Shown here in pieces: positions 6,463-43,653 of a DNA stretch of 64,000 bases. The stretch lies in NCBI GenBank assembly GCA_964478755.1, contig CAYZJP010000003.1, forward strand, positions 7,477 through 71,476. Reading direction: 5' to 3'. Each line of letters begins with the position of its first letter. Position 1 is the stretch's first letter. The notes under the pieces were generated by a model. It was given only the letters and a program-made list of their open reading frames with translations, was not told the DNA's origin and made no database searches. Both the position numbers and the translations under genes were made by a program. The DNA is from an uncultured Klebsiella sp. Lineage in GTDB: Bacteria; Verrucomicrobiota; Verrucomicrobiia; Limisphaerales; SXTU01.

Positions 6463-8382
6463 TTGGAAAGCCCGCCGGTTTCGGAAATGCTCACGCGCAT
6501 GGCAAAGCATCGCAGCCCATCCGCAGCACCCGTCTTCCTCGGCATCGAAGGCGGCGGCACGCGCACGGTGGCGCTGCTGGCGGCGGCGGACGGACGCTTG
6601 CTGAAGCACTTCGAGGCAGGGCCGGCGAATTTCAAGCTGCTCACGGAAGCGCAGTTTCTCCGCCGATTGCGCGAGGTGCGGGCGGCGTTCGCGGAATTTT
6701 CCCGGCCCGCCGCCATCGCCATCGGCCTCGCGGGCGCGCGCAGCGAGCCGGAGTGGCAGCGCATCCGCGCGGCGGCGGCGAAGATCTGGCCCAGCGTGCC
6801 GTGCCATGCGACGCATGATTTGGAAACGGCGCTGGCGGCGGCTCCTGCGACGGCGGTCTGCGACCGCCGTCGGCGCTCACACAGCGCCGCTACAGCCCAA
6901 GTCCTCCTCCTCAGCGGCACCGGCTCCTGTTTTTTCGCACGCTCGGCGGATGGGCGCACGGCGCGGTTCGGCGGCTGGGGCCACATTCTCGGCGACAAGG
7001 GCAGCGGCTACGAGATCGGCCTGCGGGCCTTGAAGGCGTGCGTTTTCTATCTCGACCGTGATGGCGACTGGACGCGGCTGGGGAAACGCATACTGCGCTC
7101 GCTGCAACTCAACGAGCCGAACGAACTCATTCCGTGGGCTCAAGCAGCGAGCAAGTCCGACATCGCGGCGCTCGCAGCGGAAGTCTTCGCCGCCGCCACT
7201 GAACGCGACGCCATCGCGGCGGACATTCTCAAAGGCGCGGCGGCGAGCCTGGCGAAGGACGGCGTGGCCTGCGCGAAGAAATTGGCGAAAGCCGGCGAGC
7301 CGGTGCAGTTCGTCCTCGCGGGGAGCGTGCTGCTGAAGCAGCCGAAGTTCGCGCGCGCTGTGGCGAACCAATTGGCCGAGAAGTGGCCGGGCTGTGTCGT
7401 TACGCCGCTGAAACGAGAGAGTGCGTGGGGGGCGGTCGAGCTGGCGCTACAGAGCGCGGGCTTCAGCCCGCAGCAGGCCACGACAGCTCAAGAAGAGTTC
7501 CGCAGTTCCTCACTCTCCGACTTGCGCAGCCCTCTGCGGCCTGAAGGCCGCACTCCACTCTCTCCGACCGAGCAGCGGAACCCGCGTTCAATGCACTTGG
7601 ACCGGATGCCCGTCGCCGACGCCATTGAGCTGATGCTGTCCGAGGACGAGCGAATTCCCGCCGCCATCCGGCGCGAGGCTCCGAAGATTGAGCGTGTCGT
7701 CGGGAAGATTGTCACCGCGTTCAAGCGCGGCGGGCGGCTGTTCTACGTCGGTGCGGGCACGAGCGGACGACTCGGAATTCTCGACGCAAGCGAATGCCCG
7801 CCGACGTTTCGCGTTCAGGCGGAGCAGGTGCAAGGCATCATCGCCGGCGGACAGACGGCGGTGTTCCGCGCGGTGGAAGGCGCGGAGGATGACTGCGAAG
7901 CGGGCGGGCGCGCAGTTCAGTTTCGCGGCGTCGCCAAACGTGACGTGGTGGTCGGCATCGCGGCGAGCGGTCGCACTCCGTTCATTCACGGCGCGCTGGC
8001 AGAAGCCCGAAAGCGCGGCGCGTTCACGGTCCTGCTTTGTTTCAACCCGGCGATGGCAAAACAGCGCGGCATCGCGCACGTGGTCATCGCGCCGGACACT
8101 GGGCCGGAGATTCTCACCGGCTCGACACGTCTCAAGTCCGGCACGGCGACGAAGTTGATCCTGAATTTGTTTACCACGCTGGCGATGGTCCGCACCGGCA
8201 AGGTCATCAGCAACCTGATGGTGGACCTGAATCCGTCGAACGTGAAGCTGCGCGACCGCGCGGTGCGCATCGTGCGCGAGCTGACCGATGCGGACCACGA
8301 CACGGCGAAGGCGGCGCTGGAAAAAACTGGCTGGGTGGTGAAGGCCGCGTGGAAACGACTTGGTGCCCCCGCCAGGAATTGA
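6463..8382 (+). CDS. murQ: fusion protein: BadF/BadG/BcrA/BcrD-type sugar kinase (MurK/NagK-like) + N-acetylmuramic acid 6-phosphate etherase (MurQ)
   Basis: N-terminal half: FLGIEGGGTRTV, LSGTGSCFF, GGWGHILGDKGSGYEIG (BadF-type GlcNAc/MurNAc kinase). C-terminal half: LSPTEQRNPRSMHLD, GGRLFYVGAGTSGRLGILDASECPPTF, GIAASGRTPF, LTGSTRLKSGTATKLILN (SIS-domain MurQ). The start may be a downstream in-frame Met (MLTRM or MAKHR). Confidence 0.85.
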   Translation: MESPPVSEMLTRMAKHRSPSAAPVFLGIEGGGTRTVALLAAADGRLLKHFEAGPANFKLLTEAQFLRRLREVRAAFAEFSRPAAIAIGLAGARSEPEWQRIRAAAAKIWPSVPCHATHDLETALAAAPATAVCDRRRRSHSAATAQVLLLSGTGSCFFARSADGRTARFGGWGHILGDKGSGYEIGLRALKACVFYLDRDGDWTRLGKRILRSLQLNEPNELIPWAQAASKSDIAALAAEVFAAATERDAIAADILKGAAASLAKDGVACAKKLAKAGEPVQFVLAGSVLLKQPKFARAVANQLAEKWPGCVVTPLKRESAWGAVELALQSAGFSPQQATTAQEEFRSSSLSDLRSPLRPEGRTPLSPTEQRNPRSMHLDRMPVADAIELMLSEDERIPAAIRREAPKIERVVGKIVTAFKRGGRLFYVGAGTSGRLGILDASECPPTFRVQAEQVQGIIAGGQTAVFRAVEGAEDDCEAGGRAVQFRGVAKRDVVVGIAASGRTPFIHGALAEARKRGAFTVLLCFNPAMAKQRGIAHVVIAPDTGPEILTGSTRLKSGTATKLILNLFTTLAMVRTGKVISNLMVDLNPSNVKLRDRAVRIVRELTDADHDTAKAALEKTGWVVKAAWKRLGAPARN

Positions 8383-39707: not shown

Positions 39708-41228
39708 TCAGCGAACTGACTTCGCAGGGTCGTAACCCTTCCGTGTCTCGATGGGCCGCACCGTGGGCGGGGGCGGCGTGACGCCGGCGGCGAGCATCAC
39801 GCGGTGCAGCGCGGCGATGGTCTCGGCGGAGGGTTTGAAATTTCCCGGCCGAAATCCCTCGGCGATGAGCAGCGGCGTCCAGCCGGATTTGTTTTTCTTG
39901 TTCCAAACCTCGATCTTCGCGCCCTTGTCGGCGAGGAGTTGCACGACCTTGGTGAGATTCTTGTAAGCCGCGCCGTGCATGGCGGTTTCGCCGTTCGCGT
40001 CCACCGCGTTCACATCCGCGCCGTGTTCGAGCAGCAGTTGCACCGCCTCGATGACTTCCGGCTCCGTGCCGGCAACTTCATCCGCCTCTGAACCGGCGAC
40101 GCCGATGCCGCACGCGACCATGAGCGGCGTGCAGTTGTCGCGATTTCCCAGAGACGGGTCGGCGCCGAGTTTGATCAACTCGCGCATGAACGGGGCGTCG
40201 GCGGTGAAGGCGGCCAGCAGGAAAGGCGTCGCGCCCACCCGGCTGAATGAGCCTGCGCCGCCCTTGCCGGTCTTGAGGCGCGCGTTCGCGTCCGCGCCGT
40301 GCTCCACGAGTTTTTTTACGAACTGGAGGCTCGTCAGGTTGCCGGAACCAATCGGCGGCGGGATGCCGTCGTCGCCGTCGCCGCGCGGCGGTTTGCGGAC
40401 CCACGAGAGCACGTGCAGCGCGGTGAAGCCCGAACGCTGGTCGTTCGCATCGGCGCCGGCATCGAGCAACGCCACGGCGAGATCGAAGTGGCCGTTCTCG
40501 ACCGCCAGCACCAGCGGGCTTGTGCCCGTCCTCGGCGCTTTGCCGCCCGGCTTGCGCGGTTGCAACGTGTCGTTCACGTCCGCGCCCGCCTTGAGCAGGG
40601 CGCGCACAACCTCGGTGCGGCCTTCGCGCACGGCGAAGAACAGCGCGGTGAAACTGGAATCCGGCAGCGCGACGCGGAAATCCGCGCCGGCCTTGAGCAG
40701 CAACTCGACGACGACGGCGTGGCCCTCCGCTGCCGCCCACATGAGCGCGGTTTGTCCGCGGTGCTCCTTCGCGTTTACGTCCGCGCCGCGGTTGAGCAGC
40801 GCGGTGACGGGGCCGGGCTTGCCGGTGCGCGCGGCGGTCATCAACACGGTCTCGCCGCCGCGCAGCGTCGTGTTCGCGTCCGCGCCGGCGGCGAGGAGCA
40901 TTTCAACGAGGTCCGTGTTGCCATTCACGCACGCGAGCGAGAGCGGGGAGATGCCGTAGCGATTCGTGGCCTTCGCATCCGCGCCGGCGGCGAGCAGCGC
41001 CTTCGCGGTCGCGAGATGGTCATGGTGCGCGGCCCAGTGCAGCGCGGTCATGCCGTCCGCCTGCGTGGATTGCACAGGAGCCTTTGCCTTGAGCAATTGT
41101 TGAACGCGCAGCCAGTCGGCCTTCTCGGCGGCGTTGGCGAGAGGGGATGGAGCGGCGAAAACCATAGGCGCAATTAGGAAGAACCCAATCGCAGCGCAAG
41201 CAACATGCAACGCACGCCACCGTGTCAC
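39708..41228 (-). CDS. secreted ankyrin-repeat protein
   Basis: At least ten ANK units (G.TALHWAA..GH...V..LL..GADVN). GTG at 41228 gives the signal peptide MTRWRALHVACAAIGFFLIAPMVFAAP. The upstream 104 codons of the track ORF are translated REP sequence. Confidence 0.85.
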   Translation of the reverse strand: MTRWRALHVACAAIGFFLIAPMVFAAPSPLANAAEKADWLRVQQLLKAKAPVQSTQADGMTALHWAAHHDHLATAKALLAAGADAKATNRYGISPLSLACVNGNTDLVEMLLAAGADANTTLRGGETVLMTAARTGKPGPVTALLNRGADVNAKEHRGQTALMWAAAEGHAVVVELLLKAGADFRVALPDSSFTALFFAVREGRTEVVRALLKAGADVNDTLQPRKPGGKAPRTGTSPLVLAVENGHFDLAVALLDAGADANDQRSGFTALHVLSWVRKPPRGDGDDGIPPPIGSGNLTSLQFVKKLVEHGADANARLKTGKGGAGSFSRVGATPFLLAAFTADAPFMRELIKLGADPSLGNRDNCTPLMVACGIGVAGSEADEVAGTEPEVIEAVQLLLEHGADVNAVDANGETAMHGAAYKNLTKVVQLLADKGAKIEVWNKKNKSGWTPLLIAEGFRPGNFKPSAETIAALHRVMLAAGVTPPPPTVRPIETRKGYDPAKSVR

Positions 41229-41239
41229 CAATCTCCGAC

Positions 41240-41425
41240 GCCCCGCAGGGGCTGCAACAAACCAGCCCAGGGCAACGCCCTGGGTTATGGTCGTCCAAAA
41301 TCCACCAAGCCCTGAAAGGGCGGCACAAACGGCGTGGTTGTTTCGCCCTTTCAGGGCTTGGGAACATTTTTGAAACCACGTTCCTGGGGCGTTGCCCCAG
41401 GCTGGTTTGTCATGCGCCTTTGGCG
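41240..41425. repeat. family C REP doublet (inverted pair, centre near 41330)
   Basis: aaaccagcccagggcaacgccctggg...aagccctgaaagggcggcacaaac | gttgtttcgccctttcagggctt...ccaggggcgttgccccaggctggttt read as reverse complements. Confidence 0.85.
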
Positions 41426-41502
41426 CGGTTTGCGACGGCGCGCATCTCCGATACCACGGCCGGTCGTTGTCCTGCCACGCTTCACTTCGAATCACTTGGT
41501 TC

Positions 41503-41955
41503 TCAATCCCACACATAACGTTCATCGAATTCGATTTCATGCCGCTTGAACAACGCGCGCAACTCGTCTTGAAACGTCACCTTGCGATGGTGTGGCTCCT
41601 GGTTTGCAATGTAACGGCTCACGGCTTCCGAGTTGGACTGGCTTACGGAGAACGCGGCGTAGCCCGCCTGCCAGCAGAACGCGGAATTGCGCGGTCCATC
41701 CGACTTCATCCACTTGGAGCTGCCCTTCTTCACTTCCTCGACAACCTTTTTCAAAGCGTGGTTCTTCGACAACGAGATCAGGGCATGCACATGGTCCTCC
41801 ACGCCACCGATTATCAGCGCCGGACTTTCCCACTCCTTGAAAATGCCCGCCTGATAGGCGAACAGCGCTGCGCGATGTTCTTTGGGAATCCAAGCCTGCC
41901 GGTGTTTCGTGCTGTAAACGAGATGCACCAGGTTCTTGACGAGTGATTGGGACAT
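41503..41955 (-). CDS. IS200/IS605-family Y1 (HUH) transposase, REP-associated (RAYT-like)
   Basis: 150 aa. HUH motif in GVEDHVHALIS. WQAGYAAFSVSQS. Catalytic-Tyr helix VSRYIANQEPHH. Confidence 0.8.
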   Translation of the reverse strand: MSQSLVKNLVHLVYSTKHRQAWIPKEHRAALFAYQAGIFKEWESPALIIGGVEDHVHALISLSKNHALKKVVEEVKKGSSKWMKSDGPRNSAFCWQAGYAAFSVSQSNSEAVSRYIANQEPHHRKVTFQDELRALFKRHEIEFDERYVWD

Positions 41956-41967
41956 GCACGGTGCGCG

Positions 41968-42268
41968 TCGGCTTGTTTCGCCCTTTCAGGGCTCGTTGCA
42001 ATTCTGATCCGTTGACCCAGGGCGATGCCCTGGGCTGGTTTGTCTCTGCCCCTTCGGGGCGCAGCAGCGGCGACAGTTCAGGACATCGCTCACTATTAGC
42101 TCACTGGCGAAACGGCCCTTCGACAATCCAAAGCGGGACATCGACACTCTTGTAGGTGTTCGAACGAACGGGATTTCTGGCCCGAAGGGCCTCAACAGAC
42201 CAGCCCAGGGCAACGCCCTGGGAGAGATCCGCCACACAGTTGGCCAGCCCTGAAAGGGCGGAACATTT
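41968..42268. repeat. family C REP units (inverted pair separated by ~100 nt)
   Basis: 41968-42066 gcttgtttcgccctttcagggc...cccagggcgatgccctgggctggtttgtctctgccccttcggggc. 42170-42268 ggcccgaagggcc...accagcccagggcaacgccctggg...gccagccctgaaagggcggaac. Confidence 0.8.
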
Positions 42269-42303
42269 GCCATCTCAGAGACGGAGTTCATGACGAACCT
42301 CGT

Positions 42304-43653
42304 TCAAATCGCCAGCGGCTCGAACAACTCGTCCACCTTGCCGTTGCTGTCGCCGAACTTGTCGAGGCGCACGCCGACCTTGTCGAGCAGCGTCAGATGC
42401 AGGTTCGCCAGCGGCGTGGGTTTGTCGTAACGGATGTGGCGGCCGCCCTTCATCCCGCCTGCCGCGCCGCCCGCGACGAGGACGGGCAGGTTCGAGTGGT
42501 CATGCACGTTGGGGTTGCCGATGCCGCTGCCGTAAAGATAGAGCGAGTGGTCGAGCAGCGTGCCGTTGCCTTCCTTCGTGCCCGCGAGCTTGCCGAGGAA
42601 CTCCGCGAAGAGCGACACGTGGAAGGAATTTATCTTCGCCATGCGCGCGATTTTGTCCGGGTCGTTGCCGTGGTGCGAAAGCGGGTGGTGCGGGTCGGGC
42701 ACGCCAATCTCGGGGTAAGTGCGGTTGCTCGTTTCGCGCGCTAGTTGGAAAGTGATGACGCGCGTCACGTCGCCCTGCAACGCGAGCAACTGCAAATCGA
42801 ACATCAGTCGCGCGTGGTCCGCGTAGCTCGCGGGCACGCCTGCGGGGCGGTCGAGGTCCGGCAACGGGTTGTCTGCCACGCTCGTCTCGGCCTTCTGGAT
42901 GCGGCGCTCCACCTCACGGACGGTTTCGAGATAATGGCCCACCTTCGCGCGGTCAGCCGGGCCGAGCGTGCGTTCGAGGCGGGAGATGTCGTCCTTCACG
43001 AAGTCGAGCAGGCTCGCGCGTTTGCGCAACGCGGCCTTGCGGTCGGCCTTGCTGCCGCCTTCGCCGAAAAGCATCTCGAAGACGAGCCGCGGATGCGCCT
43101 CGGCGGGCAGCGGCGTGGTGGGCGACGACCACGAGAGGTTGTTCTGATAAACGCACGCGTAGCCGTTGTCGCACTGGCCGACGAGCTGGAGCATGTCCAT
43201 CGCCATTTCGAGCGAGGGCAGTTGCGTCGCCTGGCCGATTTGCTTCGCGGCGACCTGGTCCACGGTTGTGCCGAGATAATAGTCGGTGCTCTCGGTCAGC
43301 TTGGCCTTGGCCGCGCTGAGGAAGGCGGAGTTGGACGTCGCGTGGCTGCCGGGATAGGCGTTTTGCAATTCAAGGTTCGTGACGACGCTCACGTGCTGCT
43401 TCACCGGCGCGAGCGAACTGAGGATCGGCGAAAGCTCGTCGAGCCGGCCCGCGCCTGGCGGCGTCCAGCGCGGCAGGTCCGCGCCCATCGGCATGAAGAC
43501 AAAGCCGAGCCGGCGGATAGGCGTGGCGGCGGTCGCGGCGGCGGCGGTCGCGGCGGGAACCATCGCGTCCAGCAGCGGCAGCGCGAGCGTCGCGCCCATG
43601 CCGCGCAGGAACGTGCGCCGCGGCAGGGCCATGCGTGTGGTGAAGGTGCTCAT
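42304..43653 (-). CDS. DUF1552 domain protein (Tat signal)
   Basis: MALPRRTFLRGMGATLALPLLDAM. HPLSHHGNDP. LPVLVAGGAAGGMKGGRH. Its ATG overlaps the upstream gene's stop (ATGA). Confidence 0.85.
   Translation of the reverse strand: MSTFTTRMALPRRTFLRGMGATLALPLLDAMVPAATAAAATAATPIRRLGFVFMPMGADLPRWTPPGAGRLDELSPILSSLAPVKQHVSVVTNLELQNAYPGSHATSNSAFLSAAKAKLTESTDYYLGTTVDQVAAKQIGQATQLPSLEMAMDMLQLVGQCDNGYACVYQNNLSWSSPTTPLPAEAHPRLVFEMLFGEGGSKADRKAALRKRASLLDFVKDDISRLERTLGPADRAKVGHYLETVREVERRIQKAETSVADNPLPDLDRPAGVPASYADHARLMFDLQLLALQGDVTRVITFQLARETSNRTYPEIGVPDPHHPLSHHGNDPDKIARMAKINSFHVSLFAEFLGKLAGTKEGNGTLLDHSLYLYGSGIGNPNVHDHSNLPVLVAGGAAGGMKGGRHIRYDKPTPLANLHLTLLDKVGVRLDKFGDSNGKVDELFEPLAI

Follow-up and report, generated by a model that had tools for sequence, protein, structure and literature searches.

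The 64,000-nt stretch of DNA analysed here (contig CAYZJP010000003.1; called the window throughout) contains, between a DUF1552 gene and an ankyrin gene, a small gene surrounded by inverted hairpin repeats. The gene lies at 41503..41955 on the minus strand and encodes a 150-amino-acid (aa) protein of the HUH/Y1 type (His-hydrophobic-His motif, single catalytic tyrosine). Its open reading frame (ORF), Pfam and NCBIfam comparisons and an AlphaFold2 model place it in the IS200 superfamily, with the signature of subclass 1.2. Four copies of a module of about 100 nt, units A to D, accompany it. Read in the orientation of the Y1 gene, the order is DUF1552 gene, unit D (+), 107 nt, unit C (-), 9 nt, Y1 gene, 70 nt, unit B (-), unit A (+) and ankyrin gene. 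Two of these modules form a palindromic pair with the Y1 ORF taking up its middle, in the arrangement unit (-), gene, unit (+). An earlier note on this DNA had reported a 150-aa Y1 HUH enzyme between inverted hairpin modules, and the Pfam match, the motifs of the protein and the inverted orientation of units C and A bear this out.

The strand of a unit was defined as the one that reads hairpin 3 (hp3), hairpin 2 (hp2) and hairpin 1 (hp1) in this order, which is the orientation of the covariance model. In this direction, a unit comprises hp3 (GCCCTTTCAGGGC), a spacer of about 22 nt, hp2 (CCCAGGGCGTTGCCCTGGG), then CTGGTTTGT and finally hp1 (GCCCCTTCGGGGC). The central hp2 is an 8-bp hairpin followed by CTG, and a linker of about 10 nt connects it to hp1. 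The covariance model, which was built from the four copies in the window, scored those same copies at 94 to 108 bits, in agreement with the four composite units of three hairpins each that had been described earlier. Unit A (41235..41335, minus strand; 108.5 bits, E = 2.4e-25; repeat families D1/D4 and I1) represents the canonical flank on the downstream side and is (+) relative to the Y1 gene. Its hairpins are located at 41240-41252 (hp1, GCCCCGCAGGGGC), 41266-41284 (hp2, CCCAGGGCAACGCCCTGGG) and 41309-41321 (hp3, GCCCTGAAAGGGC). Unit B (41332..41432, plus strand; 99.8 bits) carries hp3 at 41345-41357, hp2 at 41383-41401 (CCTGGGGCGTTGCCCCAGG) and hp1 at 41414-41426 (GCGCCTTTGGCGC), with two compensatory pair changes in hp2. 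On the other side of the gene, unit C (41965..42065, plus strand; 100 bits; hp3 at 41980-41992, hp2 at 42016-42034, hp1 at 42048-42060) is the canonical upstream flank; it is (-) relative to the Y1 gene, and its inner end is 9 nt from the ATG. Unit D (42173..42273, minus strand; 93.9 bits; hp1 at 42179-42191, GGCCCGAAGGGCC; hp2 at 42204-42222, hp3 at 42247-42259) stands head-to-head with C and 30 nt from the DUF1552 stop codon.

Units A and B form a tail-to-tail doublet (41235..41432), an imperfect palindrome in which the hp3 hairpins of both units meet in the middle. It resembles the doublets of repetitive extragenic palindromes (REPs) that are known as REPINs and from bacterial interspersed mosaic elements (BIMEs). 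Folding of the doublet as single-stranded DNA gave a single long hairpin, with -70.6 kcal/mol and, relative to 200 shuffles, a z of -8.73. The earlier description of a near-perfect 150-bp palindrome overstated its symmetry: A and B are 61% identical, the match is confined to the cores of the hairpins (24-nt arms at 92%), and the spacers of about 25 nt differ. C and D had been described as a further inverted pair. Inverted they are, but not of the same kind as A and B, since they are placed head-to-head with 107 nt of unique spacer between them, whereas A and B meet tail-to-tail and gapless.

The pattern of hp2 was matched three times against 0.05 expected from shuffled sequence, and that of hp3 was matched exactly four times, where 0.24 would be expected with up to two mismatches allowed. 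The locus, including its unique spacers, was 100% identical to contigs from two independent Sequence Read Archive (SRA) runs (L001 and L002), which excludes an artefact of assembly. We therefore regard as vanishingly unlikely the explanation that the repeats arose by chance or misassembly and that the gene is an isolated leftover of an ordinary IS200. Such an explanation would suit the metagenome-type assembly and the lack of a further copy in 64 kb, but it conflicts with the pattern counts, with the identical locus in both assemblies and with the presence of the module in hundreds of independent records.

The conserved part of the unit ends just beyond hp1 on one side and about 5 nt inside hp3 on the other, and the spacer of about 22 nt is free to vary. 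Among 150 units from 100 records, 95.9% of the cells were paired, versus 84.4% for shuffled columns and 56-64% when the partner was slid by one column; the alignment had been fitted to the model, which favours pairing, although the margin is still large. Both sides had changed in 16 of the 18 pairs, and 271 compensatory cells were counted in the same 150 units versus 69 expected. Stem swaps are also visible in the raw listing, in the forms GCCCC/GGGGC, GCGCC/GGCGC, GGGCC/GGCCC and GCCCT/AGGGC, as well as CCCAGGG/CCCTGGG versus CCCGGGG/CCCCGGG. Neither a GTAG nor a CGTC tag is present next to the units. It was also observed that hp1 and hp3 are alike (for example, 41240-41252 versus 41309-41321), both having a 5-bp G+C-rich stem and a TTC, TTT or GTT loop, and that in many genomes hp1 is exactly the hp3 sequence GCCCTTTCAGGGC. 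The module can thus be described as a small hairpin, a large hairpin and a small hairpin.

The protein matched Pfam PF01797 (Y1_Tnp) over residues 9-119 with 79.5 bits (cut-off 23; E = 2.9e-22). Its key residues are the HUH motif D54-H55-V-H57 (VEDHVHAL), W95-Q96, the catalytic Y115 (SRYIANQ), Q119 and H122-H123, and the Tyr motif is followed by a conserved C-terminal tail of 30 aa (TFQDE.R..L..H.I.FDERYVWD). D54, H55, H57, Y115, Q119, H122 and H123 were invariant in an alignment of 13 members that reached down to 38% identity. Among 75 members, H55, H57 and Q119 were invariant, and Y115, H122 and H123 were at least 90% conserved. In 2FYX, the motifs aligned with H55-V-H57 and Y115 are DYVH and YIENQ. 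An AlphaFold2 model computed with 75 diverse sequences (predicted local distance difference test [pLDDT] score of 96.5; predicted template modelling [pTM] score of 0.89) placed Y115 in a helix at residues 106-117, whereas a model from a shallow alignment (35 sequences, 77-89% identity) reached a pLDDT of 46 and was discarded as unusable. The best structural matches found by Foldseek were the TnpA proteins of ISDra2 and IS608. Ranks 1-29 were occupied by ISDra2, IS608 and Sulfolobus TnpAs (template modelling [TM] scores of 0.60-0.76, E down to 3.5e-8), and Escherichia coli TnpA-REP (4ER8) followed at rank 30. A search of solved structures with the single sequence matched IS200-type TnpA exclusively and weakly. 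The profile of the 75-member family matched every IS200/IS605 TnpA (ISDra2, IS608, Sulfolobus; E of 1e-13 to 1e-16) and gave no match to 4ER8 at E up to 1.

The earlier note had assigned the protein to the REP-associated tyrosine transposases (RAYTs), and this assignment has to be given up. In addition to the missed profile match and the low structural rank of 4ER8, NCBIfam NF047646 (REP_Tyr_transpos) yielded 27.1 bits against a cut-off of 80, in a partial match to residues 52-118. The tyrosine motif Y...NP, which is common to all class 2 (RAYT) members (PMC6006769), was sought in the protein and is absent; the protein has YIANQEPHH, corresponding to Y...Q..HH. The published signature of TnpA-Y1 subclass 1.2 combines DH[IV]H, WQ and YIKNQKEHH with a tail domain of 30 aa and a length of 148 aa (PMC6006769, Table 1). 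With DHVH, WQ, YIANQEPHH, 150 aa and the conserved tail, the protein fits this subclass at the level of signature motifs. Class 3 of TnpA-Y1, found in Planctomycetes and Acidobacteria, was rejected because its NHVH, W[TA], YV[VI][AENY]EQ and length of about 178 aa are unmatched by a protein with DHVH, WQ, YIANQ and 150 aa.

The family is large, with about 8000 word-sharing candidates at E up to 1e-5. Identity was 77-100% for the best 120 of these, almost all of which have 150 aa, and 175 family clusters were obtained at 50% identity and E up to 1e-30. Some members, including P0124, P0125, P0127, P0129 and P0130, are about 290 aa long and contain the Y1 domain twice in tandem. As single-chain dimers, these double-domain proteins would fit an IS200-like dimeric enzyme.

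Over more than 6 kb, the gene order of the window (PSD-family gene, DUF1552 gene, Y1 gene and ankyrin gene) is shared by a Planctomycetaceae metagenome-assembled genome (MAG; L011). The DUF1552 proteins of the two are 83.5% identical and the Y1 proteins 84.0%. The Y1 gene has thus diverged at the pace of its neighbours, so that the gene and its flanks were already present in the common ancestor; this speaks for vertical descent. In L011, the gene has a single unit upstream and a single unit downstream. The unit at 7843-7941 is orthologous to unit C, and 34 nt lie between the DUF1552 stop codon and the single upstream unit. Units B and D of the window are extra and absent from L011. Comparison of the Y1 gene with four homologues gave nonsynonymous rates (dN) of 0.09-0.12 with saturated synonymous rates (dS), and dN/dS was 0.03-0.08 where computable. 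These rates indicate that the gene is under strong purifying selection. Together with the 58-73% pairwise likeness of the four local units, among which C and A are the closest pair (73%), the occurrence of the module in L011 and in many phyla is at odds with the small or young repeat family suggested earlier.

To relate gene and module beyond the window, homologous loci were compared. In four independent loci of close homologues, a (-) unit lies directly upstream and a (+) unit directly downstream of the gene, with hp3 nearest to it. A larger sample of 80 metagenome loci was collected by means of two conserved peptide patterns (43-73% identity); circularity was avoided because the loci were picked by protein and not by unit. 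A unit was found within 250 nt upstream in 53 of 78 loci, downstream in 54 of 75 and on both sides in 44 of 73. The REPIN/RAYT-type layout of unit (-), gene and unit (+) that had been recognized in the window therefore recurs. The gene-proximal upstream unit was (-) in 45 of the 53 cases, and the gene-proximal downstream unit was (+) in 43 of the 54. In the 250 nt next to the gene, units were 31-fold enriched, with a density of 3.45 per kb versus 0.11 per kb elsewhere in the same loci. The inner ends of the units abut the ORF; their median distance is 8 nt on the start-codon side and -2 nt on the stop-codon side. Even the isolate Persicobacter sp. JZB09 (Bacteroidota), whose gene is 42% identical, has flanks of the same kind with fully covaried stems, including a different hp2 stem (CGATGGGT/ACCCATCG). 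The same flanks with different stems indicate that repeat and protein covary at long range, as in RAYT/REP systems.

The module also occurs away from the gene. A scan with the exact 22-mer CCCRGGGCGNTGCCCYGGGCTG, using one genome per species, returned at least 120 stretches. According to the record titles, which are those of MAGs and may hold binning errors (as the name Klebsiella probably does), these belong to Planctomycetota, Verrucomicrobiota, Lentisphaerae, Chlamydiae, Acidobacteriota, Desulfobacterota and Bacteroidota; matches listed under Gammaproteobacteria (Thiodictyon, Thiotrichales), Hydrogenedentota, Armatimonadota and Binatia were likewise obtained. Among the 120 8-kb blocks listed, 11 contained a homologue of the gene and 109 contained units without it. 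The 210 units in the listed blocks comprised 55 (-)(+) neighbor pairs, of which 50 had a gap of at most 60 nt, 10 (+)(-) pairs and 8 tandem pairs. A further 50 were internal singletons, some of them doublets that the nucleotide hidden Markov model missed and the covariance model found. The (-)(+) arrangement is hence the commonest one of dispersed units, as in A and B.

A census of a complete replicon was made for plasmid pTs485 (NZ_CP020372.1; 484,824 bp) of Candidatus Thiodictyon syntrophicum Cad16T. It carries 17 units, in six tight (-)(+) doublets, two (+)(-) pairs and one singleton. All 17 are located in stretches without a listed coding sequence, and no homologue of the gene was found on the plasmid. 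The prediction that unit copies mostly occur as inverted doublets is thus borne out in other genomes, both on this plasmid and by the 55 (-)(+) against 10 (+)(-) pairs among the matches listed. Mean pairwise identity of the pTs485 units was 0.70 (range, 0.57-0.99). Within every doublet, one arm belongs to a subtype with hp1 GCCCCTTCGGGGC and the other to a subtype with hp1 ACCCCGTTGGGGT. The units are confined to positions 300738-424115, within the last 40% of the plasmid, and none was seen in the first 300 kb with the photosynthesis gene cluster. An IS91 transposase and integrase pair lies between two doublets (404855-405046 and 407722-407913) that are 99% identical.

Some observations on individual records concern the surroundings and the inner structure of the units. 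A SNF2/PLD helicase gene, the Y1 gene and a MmeI-type enzyme gene follow one another in L003 (6714-14309), and the Y1 gene, DUF1156, units and DUF499 do so in L009 (10001-16438). On pTs485 (354039-361406), a doublet at 357201-357395 lies exactly between the anti-phage genes DUF1156 and DUF3780. The presence of anti-phage genes beside the gene or the units in these three unrelated records could reflect coincidence, co-transfer in defence islands or a functional link. A Luteolibacter MAG (L039, 695-1487) holds a tandem array of units with a period of 299 nt, and half of hp2 (CCCAGGGCGGTGCCCTGTACA) is multiplied in tandem within a unit of L003 (14360-14651).

Variable parts of units located on different contigs of the same genome had a mean likeness of 0.62, versus 0.51 for different genomes, and 9 of 23 pairs lay above the 95th percentile, which points to copying within genomes. 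Such copying would also be expected if the locus were an active IS200-type insertion sequence (IS), a selfish element of about 660 bp that is mobile now, with unit-gene-unit as its autonomous form and the doublets as internal deletions resembling miniature inverted-repeat transposable elements (MITEs). The cassette has the size of IS200, and its ORF fills the space between the ends. Both the family profile and the fold are nearest to the TnpA proteins of IS608 and ISDra2, and the close homologues reside in varied gene contexts. Frameshifted copies with units still flanking them (L115, 2568-2938; L097, 4605-5056) and three tandem paralogues with a frameshift in the middle one (L200, 554-2910) exist elsewhere, as they do for insertion sequences. 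The IS200/IS605 equivalog NF033573 was passed as well, if marginally (58.3 bits against a cut-off of 55). Against this explanation stand the orthologous locus of L011, where the Y1 protein and its neighbor show nearly the same identity at a dS near or beyond saturation, and the 64-kb window, which holds no second copy of the Y1 gene. The units of the window are too diverged from one another to be fresh copies, and the flanks are symmetric inverted modules. Moreover, subclass 1.2 is reported to be a low-copy group (1.7 copies per genome, 36% identity between copies) without IS properties (PMC6006769, Table 1). On balance, we consider a currently active IS unlikely. The earlier note had named clustering with ordinary IS200 TnpA as an outcome that would speak against its proposal; such a relationship is favored by the narrowly passed IS200 model and opposed by the symmetric flanks and the synteny between diverged genomes.

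The 3' half of the module corresponds to a known Rfam family. In all four units of the window, the segment from hp2 through the linker to hp1 aligns to the full model of RF01687 (positions 1-46), named Acido-Lenti-1, with 28.3 (B), 27.0 (D), 25.6 (A) and 25.5 (C) bits, which is under the gathering score of 37. Units that the 22-mer had found in 10 loci of Acidobacteriota and Lentisphaerae reached 37.0-43.1 bits and passed it. From these alignments, the motif Acido-Lenti-1 makes up the 3' half of the module. The repeat is not a canonical REP of about 35 nt; it is a three-hairpin module of about 100 nt, with Acido-Lenti-1 as its two 3' hairpins. Acido-Lenti-1 was described from 89 representatives in Acidobacteriota and Lentisphaerae, sometimes near group II introns, and was rated "probably RNA"; Weinberg et al. 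did not report a link to a transposase (PMC2864571). Two further motifs were rejected by their descriptions, namely, Rhodopirellula-1, a single bulged hairpin, and Solibacter-1, a three-stem junction confined to one species.

This correspondence raises the possibility that the modules are primarily host-selected RNA or transcription elements (an Acido-Lenti-1 small RNA, bidirectional terminators or mRNA stabilizers) and that their position next to the Y1 gene serves its regulation and not the processing of DNA by its product. The match to the whole of RF01687 in four copies, with relatives at 37-43 bits, and the published rating (PMC2864571, Table 1) are in line with it. So is the sequence of hp2 and CTGGTTTGT, which was flagged as terminator-like in three of the four copies, and so is the location of all the pTs485 units between listed genes; covariation of the stems suits RNA as well as single-stranded DNA. 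However, the T-rich linker and tail are unconserved outside some copies from the Planctomycetota-Verrucomicrobiota-Chlamydiota (PVC) phyla. Wobble pairs gave no clear strand bias (29 G:T versus 55 A:C), with two loop-closing positions of opposite direction dominating both counts. The Rfam model covers only 46 of the approximately 100 conserved nt, and both the palindromic doublets and the 31-fold enrichment beside an HUH gene are REP behavior at the DNA level. A primary role as RNA or transcription elements thus appears very unlikely. It should be noted that RNA or terminator roles and DNA processing are not mutually exclusive and may coexist. REPs of E. coli likewise have roles for the host.

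In our interpretation, the locus is probably a REPtron-like system on the IS200 side of the Y1 family, in which a domesticated IS200-related nuclease is combined with REP/BIME-like modules of its own. The protein is predicted to be a resident, vertically inherited HUH/Y1 single-strand DNA nuclease-transferase. By analogy with the TnpA proteins of IS608 and ISDra2 and with E. coli TnpA-REP (PMC6006769, PMC3479197, PMC8266576), we infer that it may bind, cleave and mobilize the modules. The protein would attach to the hairpins of DNA in its single-stranded state, for instance at replication forks, and would break and reseal the strand next to them. Acting in trans, it could create, move or maintain gene-less doublets, that is, the cassette minus the ORF, at extragenic sites. 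Hairpin binding with cutting and rejoining would explain the doublets and the gain of units B and D. The likeliest candidate for the recognition element is hp2 because it is the most conserved part of the module.

Several results weigh against this interpretation. The first is the pass of NF033573 already mentioned, as are the tandem paralogues and frameshifted copies. No unit was found on either side of the gene in 15 of the 73 protein-first loci. Likewise, no unit was detected beside the 37%-identical homologue of Bernardetia. The unit models had been trained on PVC copies, which limits the reach of both results. A covariance model scan of the 64-kb window revealed no fifth unit, as the earlier note had stated, and this does not suggest REP-like abundance. 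At 58-73% likeness, the four units do not support recent copying at the locus. Beyond hp1, no cleavage or target motif emerged, with at most 0.29 bit per position. The fitting of the pair-count alignment to the model and the possible binning errors behind the taxon labels also belong here.

A different emphasis would see in protein and module not a selfish element in decay but an ancient, vertically kept host system, in which the subclass 1.2 HUH enzyme recognizes a three-hairpin DNA or RNA, a small number of extragenic doublets in each genome serve the cell and Acido-Lenti-1 is the recognition site. From Planctomycetota to Bacteroidota and Gammaproteobacteria, the 22-mer CCCRGGGCGNTGCCCYGGGCTG at the core of the module does not change. 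The doublets might then serve, for example, the processing of single-stranded DNA at sites of replication or repair, or have a role linked to the anti-phage islands near which they recur. We put this forward tentatively, as a possible but doubtful extension of the REPtron-like reading.

The modules have also left traces in the annotation of the neighboring genes. The longest ankyrin ORF (39708-41540, minus strand; 610 aa) covers the A/B doublet as well as the 3' end of the Y1 gene, so that its N terminus is mistranslated repeat sequence, as the earlier note had pointed out. Ankyrin domains begin at residue 162 of this ORF, and similarity to the orthologue begins from 41144. The true start is likely the GTG at 41226-41228 (minus strand), which gives a signal-peptide-like N terminus (MTRWRALHVACAAIGFFLIAPMVFAAP), or a codon farther downstream. 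The ORF is over-extended by about 104 codons, especially over 41226-41540. The ankyrin gene call of L011 (8387-9997) is over-extended likewise. Hairpin modules are routinely translated as false N termini, as here, or as small hypothetical proteins, and the Y1 genes carry inconsistent names across databases (IS200 transposase, RayT or plain "transposase").

Two spacers of the locus are unique to this organism. The spacer of 70 nt between the Y1 stop codon and unit B (41433..41502) matched, among all fetched loci, only the same-organism contigs L001 and L002; in most homologous loci, the downstream unit begins right at the stop. The spacer of 107 nt between units C and D (42066..42172) had no homologue in the fetched loci beyond these two contigs. 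The G+C content of the latter looks lower than that of its surroundings. This spacer could be the site of the promoter of the Y1 gene; a scan for sigma-70-like promoters over 41000-42500 gave zero matches.

A domesticated Y1 transposase with REP-like repeats is a known kind of system. For the domestication of transposases in bacteria, REP/RAYT systems are the standard example; to our knowledge, they are known almost only from the class 2 RAYTs of Proteobacteria. Three features appear to be unreported in searchable papers: a cognate repeat for the branch with the subclass 1.2 signature, a three-hairpin module of about 100 nt that is common to many phyla and the placement of Acido-Lenti-1 within that module. 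Outside subscription journals, no later papers on subclass 1.2 or on RAYTs and REPINs in PVC phyla or Bacteroidota were found. The locus indicates that a second, IS200-proximal Y1 branch has its own cognate repeat and a gene-in-doublet architecture. It also gives the orphan family RF01687 a likely identity. The module is sufficiently conserved to be found across phyla with one 22-mer and offers a defined substrate for work on binding and cleavage.

Among known systems, the locus can be compared with TnpA-REP and BIMEs of E. coli, the original "REPtron", in which a single Y1 HUH gene also lies between inverted hairpin repeats (PMC3479197, PMC8266576, PMC6006769). REPs of E. coli and the units described here, in other genomes, are extragenic, located away from the gene and often arranged in inverted pairs, and the gene is resident and low in copy number. 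The two subtypes of arms on pTs485 resemble the Y and Z REPs of E. coli BIMEs. The E. coli enzyme, however, belongs to another clade, with Y...NP where the present family has Y...Q..HH. An E. coli REP is one hairpin of about 35 nt with a GTAG foot, in contrast to the three-hairpin module of about 100 nt, and its sequence is species specific, whereas that of the module is common to several phyla. RAYT/REPIN systems of Pseudomonas are similar in that inverted doublets fold as one long hairpin and correspond to the cassette minus its ORF, with a single-copy gene that is vertically inherited (PMC3116915, PMC5581495). Yet REPIN populations are large and near-identical, while the copies of the module are few where they can be counted (17 on a 485-kb replicon) and diverged. 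Group 2 and group 3 RAYTs constitute class 2, and the protein is outside that class.

With the TnpA proteins of IS608, ISDra2 and IS200, the protein has in common its fold, its HUH motif and one catalytic tyrosine, set in a Y...Q motif. The cassette further resembles IS200 in its size of about 660 bp and in having hairpins just outside the ORF. IS200/IS605 ends are asymmetric between left and right and strand specific, whereas symmetric inverted modules occur at the locus of the window, at that of L011 and at the majority of the 80 protein-first loci. The locus also differs from IS200/IS605 in the lack of tnpB and in its synteny between diverged genomes, and the protein differs in its invariant HH after the Tyr motif and its conserved 30-aa tail. 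TnpA-Y1 class 3 overlaps in host phyla, but its signature, including the CnGA foot, is unmatched. RF01687 is classed in Rfam as a small RNA, with neither a function nor a transposase assigned to it; here, its 46 nt are part of a longer, HUH-linked module of about 100 conserved nt that occurs in palindromic doublets.

The closest counterpart is subclass 1.2, with which the family agrees in signature, median length (148 aa), tail, low copy number and non-IS behavior (PMC6006769). As published, that subclass occurs mainly in Cyanobacteria and Bacteroidetes, while the family described here is abundant in PVC phyla, Acidobacteriota and others. It was also listed in 2018 by Quentin et al. with the entry "REP: no" and as lacking associated secondary structures (PMC6006769, Table 1), whereas in the window, as in most homologous loci, the ORF has hairpin modules immediately beside it. 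We regard the presence of these modules as a departure from the published description of subclass 1.2 and not as a ground to exclude the protein from it.

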